A DNA stretch of 62,542 nt from an uncultured Bifidobacteriaceae bacterium (GTDB lineage Bacteria; Verrucomicrobiota; Verrucomicrobiia; Limisphaerales; UBA11358). The stretch spans positions 1 to 62,542 of the forward strand of contig CAYPSF010000004.1 of NCBI GenBank assembly GCA_964413165.1, in the 5' to 3' direction. The notes beneath the pieces are model-generated. The model worked only from the letters and a program-made list of their open reading frames with translations, did no database searches and was not told where the DNA came from. The position numbers and the translations under genes were made by a program. Positions 37,524 to 43,750 of the stretch are shown here, one piece after another; the stretch's first letter is position 1, and each line of letters starts with the position of its first letter.

Positions 37524-37612
37524 GTTAAATTGCTGAACCGTTACATCGTTGAACCGGCCCGGACAGCGTTGAATTTTCACGGTTAAACGAATACACCGTT
37601 CAACGGTTCAAC
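37524..37612. repeat. Octamer-array inverted repeat, copy 3
   Basis: GTTAAATT GCTGAACC GTTACATC GTTGAACC ... GGTTAAAC GAATACAC CGTTCAAC GGTTCAAC. Contains the ugd stop. Confidence 0.85.
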
Positions 37613-38897
37613 GACCAACGCTCTTGTAAACCCAGCCAAGCCGTTTCATTTCCGCGGGGTCGAACAGGTTGCGGCCATCGAACATGATGGGATGGGAGAG
37701 TGATTTGCGAGCGCGTTCGAGATCGAGCTTTTTGAACTCGTCCCACTCGGTGGCCACGACCAGCGCGTCACAACCCTCGGCCACGGCGTTCATATCGTCC
37801 ACGTAGGTCACATTCATGAGCACGGCTTTGGCCTTGTCGATGGCTTTGGGATCGTGCACGCGCAGGGCCGCGCCCTCCTTTTGCAGGCGCTGGCAAAGGT
37901 CAATGGCCGGGGACATCCGGACGTCGTCGGTGTTTTGTTTGAAGGCGAGGCCGAGCACGCCGATGGTTTTATCCTTGAGCACCCAGAGGGTGTCGGTGAT
38001 TTTTTTGACAAAGCGCTCCATTTGCTCCGCATTGATGTGCTGGACTTCGCGGAGCAGGCGGAAATCGTAGCCGTTTTGCTCGGCAATTTTGATGAAGGCG
38101 CTGAGGTCTTTGGGAAAACAGCTGCCGCCGAAGCCGATGCCCGCGTTCAAGAAGCGGCGGCCGATGCGTTCGTCCAGGCCCACGCCGGCGGCGACTTCCT
38201 GGACATTGGCCCCGGTGGCCTCACAAATGGCGGCGATGGCGTTGATGTAGGAGATCTTGAGGGCGAGGAAGGAATTCGAGGCGTGCTTGATGAGCTCGGC
38301 GGAACTGATGTCGGTGACCACAATCGGCGCGTTAAATGGCGCGTAGACCTCCTTCATGGCGGCAATGGGCCGCTCGGAGCGAACCCCAATGACCACGCGG
38401 TCGGGTTTCATCAAATCGCCGACGGCGAAGCCTTCGCGCAGAAACTCGGGGTTGCTGACCACATCGCAGTCCACCTTGGCCGGGCAATAGCGTTTGATGG
38501 TTTCGGCGACTTTTTCGCCGGTCCGGACGGGCACGGTGCTTTTGTCCACGACAATTTTATAAGTGGTCATGGCAGCGGCGATATCGCGGGCGACCCGTTC
38601 GATGAAGCTCAAATCCACCGAACCGTCGGCCTGGGGCGGCGTGGGCACGGCGATGAAGATCACCTCGGATTTCTGGACGCCCTCGGCGGTGCTGCTGGTG
38701 AAGGCCAGCCGGCCGGCGGCGACATTCTTTTTCACCAATTCCTCGAGCCCCGGCTCATAGATCGGTATGCCGCCCGACTGGAGCAGCTTGACCTTGGCCG
38801 TGTCGTTATCCACGCACAGGACCTGGTGGCCGACTTCGGCGAAGCAGGCGCCGGTGACCAGTCCAACGTAACCGGTACCGATAAGGGTGAGCTTCAT
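37608..38897 (-). CDS. ugd: UDP-glucose 6-dehydrogenase
   Basis: GTGYVG, KSTVP, SNPEFLREG, GFGGSCFPKD, GLAFKQNTDD. Confidence 0.95.
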   Translation of the reverse strand: MKLTLIGTGYVGLVTGACFAEVGHQVLCVDNDTAKVKLLQSGGIPIYEPGLEELVKKNVAAGRLAFTSSTAEGVQKSEVIFIAVPTPPQADGSVDLSFIERVARDIAAAMTTYKIVVDKSTVPVRTGEKVAETIKRYCPAKVDCDVVSNPEFLREGFAVGDLMKPDRVVIGVRSERPIAAMKEVYAPFNAPIVVTDISSAELIKHASNSFLALKISYINAIAAICEATGANVQEVAAGVGLDERIGRRFLNAGIGFGGSCFPKDLSAFIKIAEQNGYDFRLLREVQHINAEQMERFVKKITDTLWVLKDKTIGVLGLAFKQNTDDVRMSPAIDLCQRLQKEGAALRVHDPKAIDKAKAVLMNVTYVDDMNAVAEGCDALVVATEWDEFKKLDLERARKSLSHPIMFDGRNLFDPAEMKRLGWVYKSVGR

Positions 38898-38900
38898 GGC

Positions 38901-39599
38901 TCAGGGGGTGGGCTTGAACGAAACCGCGGGCGTGGTGACGGTCGAAGCCGACGGTTGTTTTATTTTCAATTCCATGATGCGCAACCCGGCCTCCGCGGCG
39001 AGCGGGCTGTTGGGCATGGCGCGCATGATATCCTGATAAAGATTGATGGCGTCGGTTACTTTGCCCTGGCGTTCATTGATTTGAGCCATACCAAACCTGG
39101 CCATATTGACCGGCATCTCCTCGGTATAGGTGTTATAAATCCGCTGGTAAGTGCCGGCGGCCAGATCCGCCTTGCCCTGGGCGTCCTGGCTGGAGGCCAG
39201 CCCGAGTGAGGCCTGGGCGGCGAAGAAACTGCTCGGGTATTGATTGAGAAACTCCTGGAACTGCGTCTGGGCGTCGGCATAGTTTCCGGCCTCAAACAAC
39301 AGCGTGGCGCTTTGCAACAGGGCCCGTTCTCCGGCGGTCGTGTTGGGATAGTCCCGGGCAATTTTCAGGAACAGGCTGGCCTGCTGTCCGGGCCCGGCAC
39401 TGCGCTGGTCCGACAACATCAGTTGCGTCAACGCCTGGCCGGCGGTGATCTGCTTTTGATTCTGCTGCCAGGTGTAAAAGTAAATCACACCGGCGGCGAC
39501 AATGACGATGCCGCCGGCTGCCATCAGCCGGGTCTTGTTGGCTTCAAACCAGGGCCACAGTTTAAATAAAAAGGTCGCCGGTGCGTCTTGCAATTCCAT
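38901..39599 (-). CDS. Membrane-anchored tetratricopeptide-repeat protein (YfgM-like)
   Basis: N-terminal transmembrane helix, then helical repeats (GNYADAQTQFQEFLNQYP, GKVTDAINLYQDI). Confidence 0.8.
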   Translation of the reverse strand: MELQDAPATFLFKLWPWFEANKTRLMAAGGIVIVAAGVIYFYTWQQNQKQITAGQALTQLMLSDQRSAGPGQQASLFLKIARDYPNTTAGERALLQSATLLFEAGNYADAQTQFQEFLNQYPSSFFAAQASLGLASSQDAQGKADLAAGTYQRIYNTYTEEMPVNMARFGMAQINERQGKVTDAINLYQDIMRAMPNSPLAAEAGLRIMELKIKQPSASTVTTPAVSFKPTP

Positions 39600-39669
39600 A
39601 AAGAATCAACAGTTTTTCGTTCAAAGCCCCAAAAAACAAGCCTGAAATCAATCGAACTGAAGCATCAGG

Positions 39670-40491
39670 CTAAAACCCCCTCAAATTGGTGCTGGAACGC
39701 TGGGGCAAACCGGGGGCGGGGACGCGCTTGAGCACGAGGTATGCGATGCCGTTCTTTTCGCAATACTCGCGTTTGCCGCCCTTGTCGCCGTCCTCGTTCA
39801 CCGCATATATGTCCGGTTTCAGGCACCGGATTTCCGGATCGGCATCCAGCCAGCCGTCGCCGCTGGAAATCAGCGCCTGCTTGACGTATTTGATGGATCC
39901 GACGAGGTAGCGGCGTTCGGCCTGGGGCAGGAGGGGATGCCCCTCGCCTTTGAGCAACCGGATGTTGGCGTCGTGACCGACGACGACATAAAGGTCGCCA
40001 TAAGCGCTGATCTCCTCGAAAAAGCGCACGTGGCCGGAGTGAAACCAGTCGTAAGTACCGGTGGCGATCACCTTTTTTCGGCCGGGGACGGCGGGCAAGG
40101 GCGCCGGTTCGGGAAAACCCTTCAATTGATCCTCACCCAGCACGCAATATTCGAGGCCTTGCCGCCGACAAAACGCCTGCCGCGCTTCGTTGTCCGGACC
40201 GGCTTCATCCACCCACATTTGAGGTGGAGAATCATTCGCGGCCGGAAGTTCATCGCGAGTCACCGGGCCGGTAACGGGCAGGACCCGGCTGACGTAACGC
40301 ATGGCGCTGAGAAAGTAAAGACGTTCGGCTTCGGGAAATTTCGGCGGCTGACCGGTGAGCTCCCGAATCGTGCGATCCGGCCATAGCCGCACGGTCAGTG
40401 CGCCCAGCGTCGCGGCCGCTTCCAGGAAACGCACGTGCTGCGAGCGGAGATCATCGAACGCGCCGGTGACGACAACTTGGCGGGAATTCAT
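39670..40491 (-). CDS. Tandem-domain cytidylyl/adenylyltransferase family protein
   Basis: The C-terminal domain has GTYDWFHSGH (HxGH). The N-terminal domain has a degenerate GAFDDLRSQH. Confidence 0.8.
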   Translation of the reverse strand: MNSRQVVVTGAFDDLRSQHVRFLEAAATLGALTVRLWPDRTIRELTGQPPKFPEAERLYFLSAMRYVSRVLPVTGPVTRDELPAANDSPPQMWVDEAGPDNEARQAFCRRQGLEYCVLGEDQLKGFPEPAPLPAVPGRKKVIATGTYDWFHSGHVRFFEEISAYGDLYVVVGHDANIRLLKGEGHPLLPQAERRYLVGSIKYVKQALISSGDGWLDADPEIRCLKPDIYAVNEDGDKGGKREYCEKNGIAYLVLKRVPAPGLPQRSSTNLRGF

Positions 40492-41285
40492 CGGTGGGTG
40501 GTGCGAACAGTGACTTGAAATGACCCCGGGACTTTTTCCTTTGAGGCGACGAGCAGGTAGCCGCCGCCGCAGCCGGAGAACATCGCGCCGGGAAAATTAT
40601 TCTGGTAAACCTTCAACAGCGCCTTCAAGTCGCACTTGATGAGCGGGTGCTGGACGACGTGCGGCAGGAGTTTTTCCCAGCAAAGCATGGTTTGGTTGAG
40701 GGAGGTCCCCAACGCGTTTACGTCCATCTGCCGGATTGCGTCAAAACAATCCTTGCCGGTTTGGCCCAGCCGGAGGATCCACTTCGGGTCGAGATTTTTC
40801 CTGCCCAACGGACTGTAGCCATCCGGGCGCGGTTCGACCGGCAGCAGGTGCAGGATTTTTTCCAGCCAGCGAGCCGGTCGCATCCGGTCCAGAGTCTCGA
40901 TGTGTGACGGGAACACGCCGCCGTTGGCCGCGAAATCGTAATCCAAGCGGTTGATGCCCGGATAAACCAGGCCGATCATGTCCTGGGACCCGCTGGGTTC
41001 GGCCTTGCCATGGTTTTCGGCCTCGTAAAGTTCACGGACCAGTTCCTCCGGCGGGCGGGCGGGCAGGCGGCCCCGCCATAATTTTGTGGCTACGGCCCGC
41101 GTTCCGCTGGCGCAACCGGACCGGTCCATCACCCGAAAAGTCGGTTCCAGCGCCACGACAACCATGGAACCGGGTGGCCGGGGATTCAGCCGGGAGACGA
41201 AAGGCTGGTCAATCCAGCCACCCGCCAGTTGCAAGCGGTTGGGAATGGCACCGATGACCTCGGTGACCAACGGCGTTTTTTTCAT
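40488..41285 (-). CDS. GHMP-family sugar kinase-like protein
   Basis: PNRLQLAGGWID, GSQD and FSGCGGGYLL resemble HddA-type kinases. The ATP loop is atypical. Confidence 0.7.
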   Translation of the reverse strand: MKKTPLVTEVIGAIPNRLQLAGGWIDQPFVSRLNPRPPGSMVVVALEPTFRVMDRSGCASGTRAVATKLWRGRLPARPPEELVRELYEAENHGKAEPSGSQDMIGLVYPGINRLDYDFAANGGVFPSHIETLDRMRPARWLEKILHLLPVEPRPDGYSPLGRKNLDPKWILRLGQTGKDCFDAIRQMDVNALGTSLNQTMLCWEKLLPHVVQHPLIKCDLKALLKVYQNNFPGAMFSGCGGGYLLVASKEKVPGSFQVTVRTTHR

Positions 41286-42325
41286 TCCACAACGCGTTTG
41301 CCCTTCTTCCGGTCATGATATTGCTCTTTGATCCACTTGTAAGTGGCGGCCAGCCCGTCGTCCAACGACGTTTTCGGCTCCCACTTGAGCGTCTTTTTGA
41401 TGAAAGTGTTGTCGCTGTTGCGGCCGGCCACACCGCGCGGCGCCGTCAGGTCGTAATGCCGCTTGAGTTTGACGCCCGCAATCTTTTCCACCTTGGAAAG
41501 CAGTTCGTTGATGGAGACGAGTTCGCTGGAACCGAGGTTGATCGGCGTCGCAATCAGGTCATCGCAATGCATGATCATGTCGATGCCCTTCACACAATCG
41601 TCGATGTACATGAAACTGCGCGTCGCCGTGCCGTCGCCCCAGATGGTGATGTTCATGTCCTGCTTGTCGATGGCGGCGATGACCTTGCGGCACAGGGCGG
41701 CGGGGGCTTTTTCGCGGCCGCCATCCCAGGTGCCGTGCGGGCCATAGACGTTGTGGAAGCGGGCGATGGCGGTTTTCATGCCGCGTTCAGCCCAGTATTC
41801 CTGGCAAAACATTTCGGAAACGAGCTTCTCCCAGCCGTAGCCGCGCTCGGCCATGGCCGGATAGGCGTCGGATTCCTTCAACGCGCGAACTTTCGGGTCC
41901 TGTTGCAGCAGAATATTGTAGGCGCACGCCGACGATGAATAAAAATAGCGGCGGACGCCCGCCTGATAGGCCGCCTCGACCATATGGGTGTTGATCAGGA
42001 TGCTGCGCAGGCACTCCACGCGGAACCGCTCGATGAAGCCCATGCCGCCCATGTCGGCGGCCAGCTGATACACCTCGACGGCGCCTTCACAAACGCGCCG
42101 GCAATTTTCCTCGTGGCTGACATCCAGGCAAATGGATTCGACCCCCGGCACCTTCAGATACCATTCATAAAGCGGTTTCTTGTCCACCGCCCGGATGCGG
42201 GTGAAGCCCTTGTTTTTGAAATACAGGGCCAGATTGCCGGCAATGAAGCCGCCGGCGCCGGTGATGACAATCAAATCGTCTTTTTGCAACTGGGGATCTT
42301 TTTCGATGAGCCGTTTCTTTTCCAT
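41282..42325 (-). CDS. GDP-mannose 3,5-epimerase-like NAD-dependent epimerase
   Basis: GAGGFIA, LAADMGGMGFI, YSSSACAY, GYGWEKL, GTWDGGREKAPAALCRK, GRNSDN. Confidence 0.88.
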   Translation of the reverse strand: MEKKRLIEKDPQLQKDDLIVITGAGGFIAGNLALYFKNKGFTRIRAVDKKPLYEWYLKVPGVESICLDVSHEENCRRVCEGAVEVYQLAADMGGMGFIERFRVECLRSILINTHMVEAAYQAGVRRYFYSSSACAYNILLQQDPKVRALKESDAYPAMAERGYGWEKLVSEMFCQEYWAERGMKTAIARFHNVYGPHGTWDGGREKAPAALCRKVIAAIDKQDMNITIWGDGTATRSFMYIDDCVKGIDMIMHCDDLIATPINLGSSELVSINELLSKVEKIAGVKLKRHYDLTAPRGVAGRNSDNTFIKKTLKWEPKTSLDDGLAATYKWIKEQYHDRKKGKRVVE

Positions 42326-42481
42326 ATTACCTTTCCATTTTAATCTGGTTCAAGATGTCTGCCGTCATTCGTTTTCAAAAACTGGTCGTTCATACTATCC
42401 GCCATCAGCCCCCGCTGCAATAGCGTTCCTCGCCAAAACCGCCGTATTTTCAGCCGATTTTGGACATTTCTGTCTTATTTC

Positions 42482-42510
42482 TTGACACAGTAATAGCGGT
42501 GAACTATTAG
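42482..42510 (+). promoter_or_regulatory. Sigma70-type promoter with an overlapping inverted repeat
   Basis: TTGACA-N17-TATTAG, with TAATAG-N7-CTATTA covering the spacer and -10. Confidence 0.5.
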
Positions 42511-42709
42511 TAAGCTTCCCCGCTATGCAGGGAGGAGAAAGTTTGATTAGTTGCCGGACGTAATGATGATGTCGATTTGGTGCTGGAGGAACGACTAAGC
42601 AATCATTCGTATGATTTGTTCGGGTCATTTATAAACAACTTATGACAGGCAAGAGTGGCGGGAATCAAACAGCCAATCACGGAAACAACAAGAAATACAT
42701 TTTGCGGCA

Positions 42710-43750
42710 ATGCTTTACAACAAACCTGTTTCTTTAATCTTTGCGATTCTGACTTCGGTTATCCTTGGGGGCAACGCCAGCCAGGCCGATACGGTTTACG
42801 TGTCCAACACCGGCGCGGGCACCATTTCGCGAATTGGTCCCAGTGGCGCCTCATCCATCTTTGCCAGCGGCCTGGACAGTCCCAAGGACCTGGTTTTCGA
42901 CGGTGCGGGCAATCTCTACGTTGCGGATTCCGGCGACGGAACCATTTTGAAATTCGACCTGGCTGGAAACATGTCCACCTTTGCCACCGGCTTGAACGGC
43001 CCTTCGGCGCTGGCTTTCGACCCGTTCGGCAACCTTTATGCCGGCAGCCAAGGTAGCCAGACGATCTCAAAAATCGATTCCAGCGGGCATGTCTCCAGCT
43101 TTGCCACGGGAATAAGCTTCTGTTCCGATGGCGCTTATCTGGCCGCAGACAACGCCGGGAATATCTTTGCCAACACCCTTCGCACCGTTGAACAATTTAA
43201 TTCCACCGGGACCCGGTCCACGCTGATGAGTTCTTTCAGTTCGGTCGAGGGGATGGCGGTTGACGTCGCCGGACATTTTTACCTGGCCTTGCAGAACGGA
43301 TGTAATATCCATGGCAATGGCGGTCTGTTGACCAGCATCGCCGACTATCCGGCTCCTTACGGCAGCAGCGGCGCTCCTCCGCCCGGCAGCATCGACACCC
43401 CCTGCGATCTTGTTTTTGACCTGGATGGCAATCTTTTTGCCACCTTTGCGAGCATGTACAATGACGGAATCGGCGGGCCGACCATGGATAACAACGTCCT
43501 GATCAGGTTCGGTGCCGACGGGCACAACAGTGTTGTCGCCACCGACATTGGCGGAACGTACATAGCTGTTATGGGGGGCGTTCAGTCCGTGCCGGAACCG
43601 GGAATTTGGGCGTTGGCCGGTGGGATGGCGGCCATCCTGATTGTCCGGAAACGGCTGATGGGTCTGCTTCACCCGGGGCTGGTGCTTGAATCTATTCCGA
43701 CCTGCGTCCAAAACTCTGAACGTCGCCGCAAAACCTGCCTCCGTTCTTGA
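42710..43750 (+). CDS. NHL/SMP-30-like beta-propeller protein with a PEP-CTERM signal
   Basis: Signal peptide, repeats FDGAGNLYVAD and FDPFGNLYAG, then VPEP-GIWALAGGMAAILIV-RKR. Confidence 0.85.
   Translation: MLYNKPVSLIFAILTSVILGGNASQADTVYVSNTGAGTISRIGPSGASSIFASGLDSPKDLVFDGAGNLYVADSGDGTILKFDLAGNMSTFATGLNGPSALAFDPFGNLYAGSQGSQTISKIDSSGHVSSFATGISFCSDGAYLAADNAGNIFANTLRTVEQFNSTGTRSTLMSSFSSVEGMAVDVAGHFYLALQNGCNIHGNGGLLTSIADYPAPYGSSGAPPPGSIDTPCDLVFDLDGNLFATFASMYNDGIGGPTMDNNVLIRFGADGHNSVVATDIGGTYIAVMGGVQSVPEPGIWALAGGMAAILIVRKRLMGLLHPGLVLESIPTCVQNSERRRKTCLRS

Follow-up and report, generated by a model that had tools for sequence, protein, structure and literature searches.

A coupled GDP-mannose 3,5-epimerase, compact GHMP kinase and tandem HxGH transferase as a predicted nucleotide-sugar module for L-galacto-configured sugars

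Contig CAYPSF010000004.1 of the assembly GCA_964413165.1, deposited as an uncultured Bifidobacteriaceae bacterium and placed by GTDB in the Verrucomicrobiota (Limisphaerales), was analysed over positions 1 to 62,542 (hereafter, the window). On the minus strand, the window carries three overlapping genes that encode a homologue of GDP-mannose 3,5-epimerase (GM35E or GME), a short GHMP-type kinase and a tandem nucleotidyltransferase with the HxGH motif (Table 1). On balance, this trio is likely to be a nucleotide-sugar module for L-galacto-configured sugars that is tied to GDP-mannose by the epimerase. From sequences and structural models, it is predicted to be built on a new, minimal family of GHMP kinases and on a transferase fold that is not known for such a job. 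A preliminary description of the locus, made by reading the DNA without database searches, had proposed salvage of an unusual L-sugar by a route that matches no described pathway; the trio indeed looks like such a system, and the sugar can be narrowed to the L-fucose/L-galactose configuration. The literature yielded no description of an operon combining a fucokinase with GME, of a fucose-1-phosphate transferase of the HxGH fold, or of L-galactose catabolism through GDP-sugars.

Table 1. Coordinates of the trio, its motifs and domains, and the features downstream of it
Feature	Coordinates	Strand	Remarks
GDP-mannose 3,5-epimerase (GM35E/GME) homologue	41282..42325	minus	347 aa
Compact kinase, predicted fucokinase-type GHMP	40488..41285	minus	265 aa
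Tandem HxGH nucleotidyltransferase	39670..40491	minus	273 aa
Kinase motif I, PNRLQLAGGWIDQP, residues 15-28 (R17, W24, D26, Q27)	41202..41243	minus	aligns with FKP SPVRIDMAGGWTDTP (R592, W599, D601, T602)
Kinase variant phosphate loop RSGCASGTR, residues 55-63	41097..41123	minus	replaces PxGSGLGSS
Kinase GSQD, residues 99-102	40980..40991	minus	aligns with FKP G759-W-Q761-D762; predicted C4-OH ligand Q101, predicted general base D102
Kinase GHMP motif III SGCGGGY, residues 237-243	40557..40577	minus	aligns with FKP GAGGGGY
Degenerate N-terminal transferase domain, residues 1-127	40111..40491	minus	FDDLRSQH where HxGH is expected
Predicted catalytic C-terminal transferase domain, residues 137-273	39673..40083	minus	HSGH (151-154, nt 40030-40041), RSSTNLRGF (265-273)
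Terminator-like hairpin and U-run	39630..39671	minus	immediately follows the stop codon of the transferase gene; folding energy of the RNA -18.3 kcal/mol (z = -2.29)
TPR/YbgF(CpoB)-like gene	38901-39599	minus	N-terminal membrane helix; between the transferase gene and ugd
ugd	37608-38897	minus	3 nt after the TPR/YbgF-like gene

The three core proteins

Taken on its own, the kinase has no match in Pfam (even at E = 10, GHMP_kinases_N included), among NCBIfam models or among PDB chains, so that its placement draws on the profile of its family and on the predicted structure. The family comprises 6933 clusters at 90% identity, with all listed source names reading ‘hypothetical’, and 646 representatives at 50%. 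An alignment of 21 diverse members (A1) contains four conserved blocks, P-x-R-x-x-L-A-G-G-W-x-D-Q-P, R-S-G-m-A-T-S-T-R, S-G-S-Q-D and S-G-A-G-G-G-G-Y, and its profile retrieves from PDB the L-fucokinase domain of FKP from Bacteroides fragilis (E = 4.6e-15), followed by HddA-like heptose kinases (2e-7) and mevalonate kinases (1e-3). The AlphaFold (AF2) model of the kinase, with a predicted local distance difference test score (pLDDT) of 91.9, has the two-domain GHMP fold. At probability 1.0, Foldseek matched it only to GHMP kinases (query TM-score, TMq, 0.62-0.68), including WcbL, the HddA-like 3k85, mevalonate kinase, FKP and galactokinases. The only protein in which the Pfam model GHMP_kinases_C rose above its cut-off was P0235, a distant member of the family that carries a fusion (29.1 bits vs 21).

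The residues that matter in FKP are known. Catalysis by this enzyme involves R592 and D762, fucose is bound by W599, D601, T602 and Q761, the D762A mutant is inactive, and the substrates include L-galactose and D-arabinose besides L-fucose (PMC11982464). R592, W599, D601, G759, Q761 and D762 of FKP correspond to R17, W24, D26, G99, Q101 and D102 of the kinase, all of which are invariant across A1, as are P15 and G22 of motif I; T602 is replaced by Q27, a substitution at a sugar-binding position. The site of the GHMP phosphate loop is occupied by residues 53-63, MDRSGCASGTR, a local version of the family block R-S-G-m-A-T-S-T-R, rather than by the canonical motif II, P-x-G-S-G-L-G-S-S; here, G57 and R63 are invariant in A1, and R55 and T62 are nearly so. 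Motif III is recognizable, and its G238, G240, G241 and G242 are nearly invariant. A full-length fucokinase would have a GHMP core of ~370 aa and would match a fucokinase model of NCBIfam or Pfam, whereas this protein has 265 aa and no family match, and PRK13412 aligned only to a 70-residue stretch of a distant fusion (45 bits vs 721). Judging from the alignment and the model, the kinase is best described as a pared-down GHMP anomeric kinase, presumably of the fucokinase type, ~100 residues shorter than usual. Thus, the short, atypical GHMP kinase with an MDRSGCASGTR loop, to which the preliminary description had drawn attention, is borne out by the profile, the predicted fold and the location of the loop. 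No paper on this kinase family was found, unlike for FKP and GME.

In the transferase, Pfam detects two CTP_transf_like stretches (PF01467; 51.4 bits vs a cut-off of 21). The C-terminal domain contains the HxGH and R-x-x-[ST]-T signatures of the fold, in the form of HSGH and RSSTNLRGF, both conserved in 66 orthologues, and is 42-47% identical to the cytidylyltransferase-like (CT) domain that is fused to the kinase in other lineages. The N-terminal domain is 31-37% identical to the active CT domains of the fused relatives and lacks the motifs of the HxGH family: its consensus over 66 orthologues is FDd..srdlRF, never with the His, in agreement with the degenerate N-terminal domain noticed at first reading. 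The only full-length structural match of the AF2 model (pLDDT 91.6) is human ECT (3elb/4xsv; TMq 0.75-0.78), and the single halves match HldC, TagD and CCT. Like the trio transferase, ECT consists of tandem CT domains that form a pseudo-dimer; unlike it, ECT is a eukaryotic enzyme with phosphoethanolamine and CTP as its substrates, whereas the trio enzyme has lost the N-terminal HxGH and is partnered with a sugar kinase. Among NCBIfam models, the best match is rfaE domain II, a heptose-1-phosphate adenylyltransferase (69.3 vs a cut-off of 181.5), with HldE scoring 57.6 vs 521. Domain II of HldE and HldC are themselves sugar-1-phosphate transferases of the HxGH fold and set a precedent for such substrates. 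GFPP, which forms the N-terminal domain of FKP, combines an NTP_transferase domain of GT-A-like fold with a beta-helix; the trio transferase, an HxGH Rossmann tandem, is not a member of that family and yet can conceivably perform GFPP-like work.

The kinase and the transferase are thus comparable to the two halves of FKP, which is the nearest solved relative of the kinase and shares with it the catalytic Arg and Asp and the sugar-contacting Trp, Asp and Gln; in both systems, anomeric phosphorylation of beta-L-fucose, predicted in the case of the trio, would be followed by nucleotidyl transfer. The differences extend beyond the length of the kinase, its loop and the lack of a Pfam or NCBIfam model to the fold of the transferase, to the gene order, the trio-type genes being separate or fused in the opposite order (transferase-kinase), and to the coupling with GME, which FKP does not have.

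The epimerase is assigned to GM35E by comparison with the plant GME structures 2c59 and 8sg0 (phmmer E = 1e-80), and its activity is predicted from this similarity; all other matches are at 1e-24 or worse, including heptose 6-epimerase at 1e-13. A review (PMC8787198) lists the residues by which GM35E can be told from GDP-fucose synthase and GalE. All eight of these hallmarks are kept, S132, C134, Y163, K167, N192, K206, R236 and R302 corresponding, in this order, to S143, C145, Y174, K178, N203, K217, R243 and R306 of the Arabidopsis enzyme. They include the S/Y/K triad (S132/Y163/K167), the Cys-Lys acid/base pair (C134/K206) in place of the Cys-His pair of GMER, the acidifying R302, the diphosphate-binding R236 and the conserved N192. 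The GME type of epimerase suggested by the preliminary description is therefore upheld by both the E-value and the hallmarks. In plants, GME belongs to the Smirnoff-Wheeler route and feeds the synthesis of ascorbate and of the wall. In Methylacidiphilum fumariolicum SolV, the source of a characterised verrucomicrobial homologue, the neighbours are a glycosyltransferase and a methyltransferase (PMC6678494). The papers found do not mention any coupling with a kinase and a transferase, and a homologue search with GME yielded annotations only.

Gene coupling and genomic neighbourhoods

At both junctions of the trio, the stop codon of one gene and the start codon of the next overlap in ATGA (GTGGAATGAAAAAA and CACCGATGAATTCC), which confirms the 4-nt overlaps reported in the preliminary description. 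The A1 set was too variable for a locus search, and a closer set (A2) was used for genomes and a distant one (A3) for metagenomes. In a one-genome-per-species collection, at least 527 stretches contain the kinase gene, and the trio recurs in genomes of the Limisphaerales type. The best 80 loci, all at 67-82% identity, were taken as clade 1; clade 2 consists of 80 metagenome loci with 30-38% identity to the window kinase (loci are numbered below with the prefix L). Where clade-1 loci had room downstream of the kinase, the transferase was present in 72 of 77, immediately downstream in 61; where they had room upstream, the epimerase was present in 53 of 72, immediately upstream in 47. This co-occurrence is far above chance, and the preliminary description, which had staked its reading on it, is vindicated in this respect. 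In clade 2, the transferase and the kinase form a single fused open reading frame in 79 of the 80 loci, and in every lineage sampled the two are either adjacent or fused.

Beside the simple fusion, the kinase-transferase unit has been joined to an L-rhamnose-mutarotase-family domain, to glycosyltransferase domains and to a phosphorylase-superfamily domain. In P0235, P0211, P0213 and P0166, the kinase shares one polypeptide with PNP_UDP_1 and a transferase domain, with GT2 or with other domains that resemble glycosyltransferases. A 539-aa fusion of tandem transferase and kinase, found on many contigs (L082-L084, 8001-9620), lies amid genes for GT9, LpxD, LpxI, a Kdo kinase, several glycosyltransferases and an MsbA-like ABC exporter; it may act on a sugar other than the one used in clade 1. 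In L113 (4252-11657), a metagenome contig, two kinase-transferase fusions flank a GME gene, followed by FucP and then by LpxK and a canonical HldE; in the kinase tree, one of these fusions has its place between the clade of the window and that of the fused proteins. A 547-aa tandem-transferase-kinase fusion occurs on short contigs (L086, 3063-4706, and L087) beside a Fis1-type tetratricopeptide repeat (TPR) gene, a context that suggests a eukaryotic, transcriptome-derived source and a family that perhaps extends beyond bacteria.

The neighbours of the module in relatives of the window point to the identity of the sugar. Glycoside hydrolases of family GH29, an RbsD/FucU mutarotase or a major facilitator superfamily permease are found in 42 of the 80 clade-1 loci, with at least one such gene on the same strand and within 6 kb of the kinase in 38 of them, and an AraC regulator is divergently transcribed upstream of the epimerase in 24 of the 80. 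The typical fuller architecture is AraC, divergent from an operon for GME, kinase, transferase, FucU, FucP and GH29; the operon in this order is present in L003 and L030, and FucU also follows the transferase in L034 and L043. GH29 is inserted between the kinase and the transferase in 11 clade-1 loci, and one operon contains four GH29 copies. The operon permease scores above the equivalog cut-off for FucP (308.9 and 404 vs 280.4). On a Bacteroidota-like contig, a fusion of rhaM, transferase and kinase is followed by FucP and GH29, without GME. Among solved structures, the operon GH29 enzymes come closest to the exo-alpha-L-galactosidase BpGH29 (E = 1e-74 to 1e-77), whose Asp binding O6 of L-galactose is kept, as WQTDT, in 28 of 34 operon GH29s; the Thermotoga fucosidase has Thr at this position. 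Since the same subgroup of GH29 also holds xyloglucan fucosidases, this evidence leans towards L-galactose without proving it. Together with the residues shared with FKP, these neighbours make it quite likely that the kinase and the transferase act on a sugar of the L-fucose/L-galactose type.

Several less regular neighbours were recorded. In L003 (14226-15740), L009 (11134-12570) and L043 (13160-15382), the fuller operon is followed by lookalikes of L-arabinose isomerase, FucI-like isomerase, FGGY kinase and LutA, judged from N-terminal sequences alone, so that classical deoxy-sugar catabolic genes can apparently adjoin the module. A 299-aa NTP_transferase-like protein is encoded on the opposite strand beside the operon in 6-7 loci (L006, L050, L053, L058, L060, L080, near AraC/GME); it matches an uncharacterised structure, 3pnn, at 1e-102 and may supply the pathway with another nucleotidyltransferase. 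No recurrent HxHxQ (VTC2-like) family was found among the neighbours of the 160 loci.

Proposed pathway and alternative explanations

The conserved residues suggest that, in the first step, the kinase would use ATP to phosphorylate beta-L-galactose and/or beta-L-fucose at O1, with D102 as the base, R17 stabilising the leaving group, and W24, D26 and Q101 holding the sugar at C3-C6. The obligate coupling and the fusions point to the tandem HxGH enzyme as the one that would then add a nucleotide to the sugar-1-phosphate, its C-terminal domain being catalytic and the dead N-terminal domain serving as a built-in dimer partner. GTP is the probable nucleotide because the partners of the pair elsewhere are all GDP-sugar enzymes. 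The kinase-transferase unit lies beside GME in clade 1, in L081 (with a 54% identical GME) and in ~10 clade-2 loci, and beside gmd and fcl in 5 other loci, never beside both, and in the kinase tree the GME-linked and the fcl-linked members are interspersed across several sub-clades. Arguing by association, the product is thus probably a GDP-sugar. In the third step, the epimerase, in view of its full set of catalytic residues, would equilibrate GDP-L-galactose with GDP-D-mannose. The GME equilibrium favours GDP-mannose, published figures implying roughly 80:15:5 for mannose, L-galactose and L-gulose (PMC6678494), and three co-expressed enzymes would therefore drain most of the activated L-galactose into the GDP-mannose pool.

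In terms of enzyme classes, the fuller operons of the relatives parallel the Leloir pathway and its pyrophosphorylase (Isselbacher) variant (GalM, GalK, GalT or UDP-sugar pyrophosphorylase, GalE): a mutarotase, a GHMP anomeric kinase, a nucleotidyl transfer and a short-chain dehydrogenase/reductase (SDR) epimerase leading to a mainstream nucleotide sugar. The analogy is functional only; here, the nucleotide would be GDP instead of UDP, the sugar an L-sugar instead of a D-sugar, the epimerase would act at positions 3 and 5 instead of 4, and an HxGH transferase takes the place of GalT of the HIT family. As to the direction of the flow, two purposes have similar odds. A Leloir-like assimilation, put marginally ahead, is favoured by a context that is rich in carbohydrate-active enzymes and looks inducible and by the lack of glycosyltransferases among the recurrent neighbours; a supply of GDP-L-galactose or GDP-L-fucose for the cell's own glycans is nearly as probable, with both directions at once or some other arrangement making up the rest. 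There is a realistic, though less than even, chance that the cassette forms the core of an undescribed, widespread catabolic route, L-galactose -> L-galactose-1-phosphate -> GDP-L-galactose -> GDP-D-mannose -> mannose phosphates.

Several observations weigh against the proposed module. No GH29, FucP, FucU or AraC gene lies near the trio within the 62 kb of this window, which has the three core genes only, and the identity of the sugar consequently rests on the relatives. L-fucose, the commoner of the two sugars, gains no obvious metabolic outlet from GME, and no alignment columns were found that separate the GME-linked kinases from the gmd/fcl-linked ones, as might distinguish L-galactose from L-fucose specificity. 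The phosphate loop of the kinase is non-canonical, and its N-domain lacks ~80 of the residues usual in GHMP kinases. The best family matches of the transferase (rfaE domain II, TagD, ECT) are enzymes that use ATP or CTP, and we know of no guanylyltransferase of the HxGH fold.

The alternative that fares best, although we consider it less likely than the module as proposed, is supply only, with no gain of carbon: GME would be a de novo source of GDP-L-galactose, formed from GDP-mannose, and L-galactose or L-fucose would be recycled or scavenged for surface glycans by the other two enzymes, as by FKP in Bacteroides. Such a role would suit the clade-2 loci, where the fused kinase-transferase lies beside gmd and fcl, which form GDP-fucose de novo in an irreversible, biosynthetic route, or beside GME; as these loci carry one or the other, GME looks like a functional alternative to gmd/fcl. 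It would also suit the tandem CT-CT-kinase fusion inside a lipopolysaccharide-core/lipid A cluster, the LpxK and HldE genes that adjoin the module in L113, the TPR gene and ugd that follow the trio in this window and in its two closest relatives, and the Bacteroidota module, which has FucP and GH29 and neither GME nor a catabolic follow-up. However, no glycosyltransferase, flippase or polymerase is among the genes that recur around the module in the 80 clade-1 loci; they are instead GH29, in up to four copies per operon, GH43, GH31, an esterase, FucP, FucU and the divergent AraC, and L138 has GH5, LacI and CE2 near the module. Moreover, the equilibrium of GME would send most of the salvaged L-galactose to GDP-mannose. 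For the same reason of context, the cell-envelope destination that had been proposed for the product in the preliminary description appears doubtful.

An improbable alternative separates the epimerase from the other two enzymes: the transferase would make a CDP- or ADP-linked L-sugar or activate a non-sugar phosphate, and the epimerase, although encoded beside them, would simply serve the ordinary pool of GDP-mannose. CTP or ATP is indeed what every characterised enzyme retrieved from the HxGH cytidylyltransferase-like family uses. The ATGA overlaps, however, couple the translation of the three genes, the link with GME recurs in several independent sub-clades of the kinase, fused and unfused, and the alternative partners, gmd and fcl, are GDP-sugar enzymes as well.

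Even less probable is a 6-deoxy route, in which the sugar would be L-fucose and the epimerase would turn GDP-L-fucose into GDP-D-rhamnose or other GDP-6-deoxyhexoses for glycans. The GM35E hallmarks, all of them kept, and the 1e-80 similarity to the plant enzymes speak against it, as does the finding that the 6-deoxy GDP-sugars covered by a review arise through dedicated epimerase/reductases after gmd and not through GM35E; no D-rhamnosyltransferase context was seen. What can be said for this route is that FucP, FucU and GH29 are classically fucose genes, that plant and microbial glycans contain L-fucose far more commonly than L-galactose, and that this DNA is present in rhizosphere metagenomes.

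Activation of a heptose by an HddA/HldE-type kinase and transferase, with the SDR enzyme as a heptose epimerase, had been offered as an alternative in the preliminary description and is rejected: the HldE and HddA-HddC systems do share with the trio the combination of a sugar kinase, a sugar-1-phosphate nucleotidyltransferase and an SDR epimerase, rfaE domain II is the best NCBIfam match of the transferase, HddA-like kinases and the heptokinase WcbL are among the profile and structural neighbours of the kinase, and one distant fusion lies beside a gene of the GT9 heptosyltransferase family, but the scores for rfaE domain II and HldE, quoted above, and for the heptose epimerase model (50.9 vs a cut-off of 274.6) are far under the cut-offs, FKP is ahead of HddA by eight orders of magnitude with the fucose-contacting residues kept, the epimerase is of the GME type, gmhA and gmhB were not seen among the recurrent neighbours, where fucose genes are found instead, and a canonical HldE of the PfkB+CT type is encoded separately beside the module in L113.

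If the nucleotide-sugar module proposed here has the predicted chemistry, bacterial salvage of fucose and L-galactose would be far wider than the FKP-based picture and would proceed through a different transferase fold, and the coupling to GME would provide the first bacterial route that links free L-galactose with mannose metabolism. Thousands of proteins of the kinase family are labelled hypothetical and have no curated model, which leaves the sugar-activation step invisible to genome annotation. Should the Leloir-like route be true, the kinase would be the founding member of a new minimal GHMP family, and the route would help to account for the use, by the abundant Verrucomicrobia of soil and rhizosphere, of the L-galacto-configured sugars that their many GH29 enzymes release, with a bearing on the processing of plant and microbial glycans by rhizosphere and peat Verrucomicrobia.

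Surroundings of the locus and source of the DNA

The terminator-like hairpin and U-run that follow the stop codon of the transferase indicate that the trio probably ends its own transcript. A scan of the locus for promoter and terminator consensus sequences gave results no better than those of shuffled sequences, the loop of this hairpin being too long for the scan. The gene ugd, which had been regarded as part of the context just downstream, is in fact two genes downstream, behind the TPR/YbgF-like gene and the hairpin. It was rejected as a member of the unit on the grounds of this intervening hairpin and of poor conservation, the TPR gene and ugd following the trio in 2 of the 80 related loci. 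In these two closest relatives of the window (L001 and L007), the TPR-ugd pair recurs together with MutT and a double NDK gene, a combination that is not found in the other 78 loci.

Upstream of the epimerase, the window has an AT-richer, non-coding stretch of 380 nt (42326-42709), at the place where relatives carry the divergent AraC gene; beyond it lie a gene for a PEP-CTERM protein (42710-43750) and then tRNA-Ser.

The sequencing runs that hold this DNA are almost exclusively rhizosphere metagenomes, together with peat and permafrost samples; the listed runs are DNA runs, with no RNA runs among them. The names given to the closest homologues point to the Limisphaerales-type Verrucomicrobia as the group to which the source organism belongs. 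Metagenome-assembled genomes with the operon at 70-80% identity (L002, L011, L019, L020, L023, L030, L034 and others) are labelled Acidobacteriaceae, Bifidobacteriaceae, Limnocylindrales or Methylomirabilota; on an operon of the verrucomicrobial type, such labels are probably errors of binning or naming.

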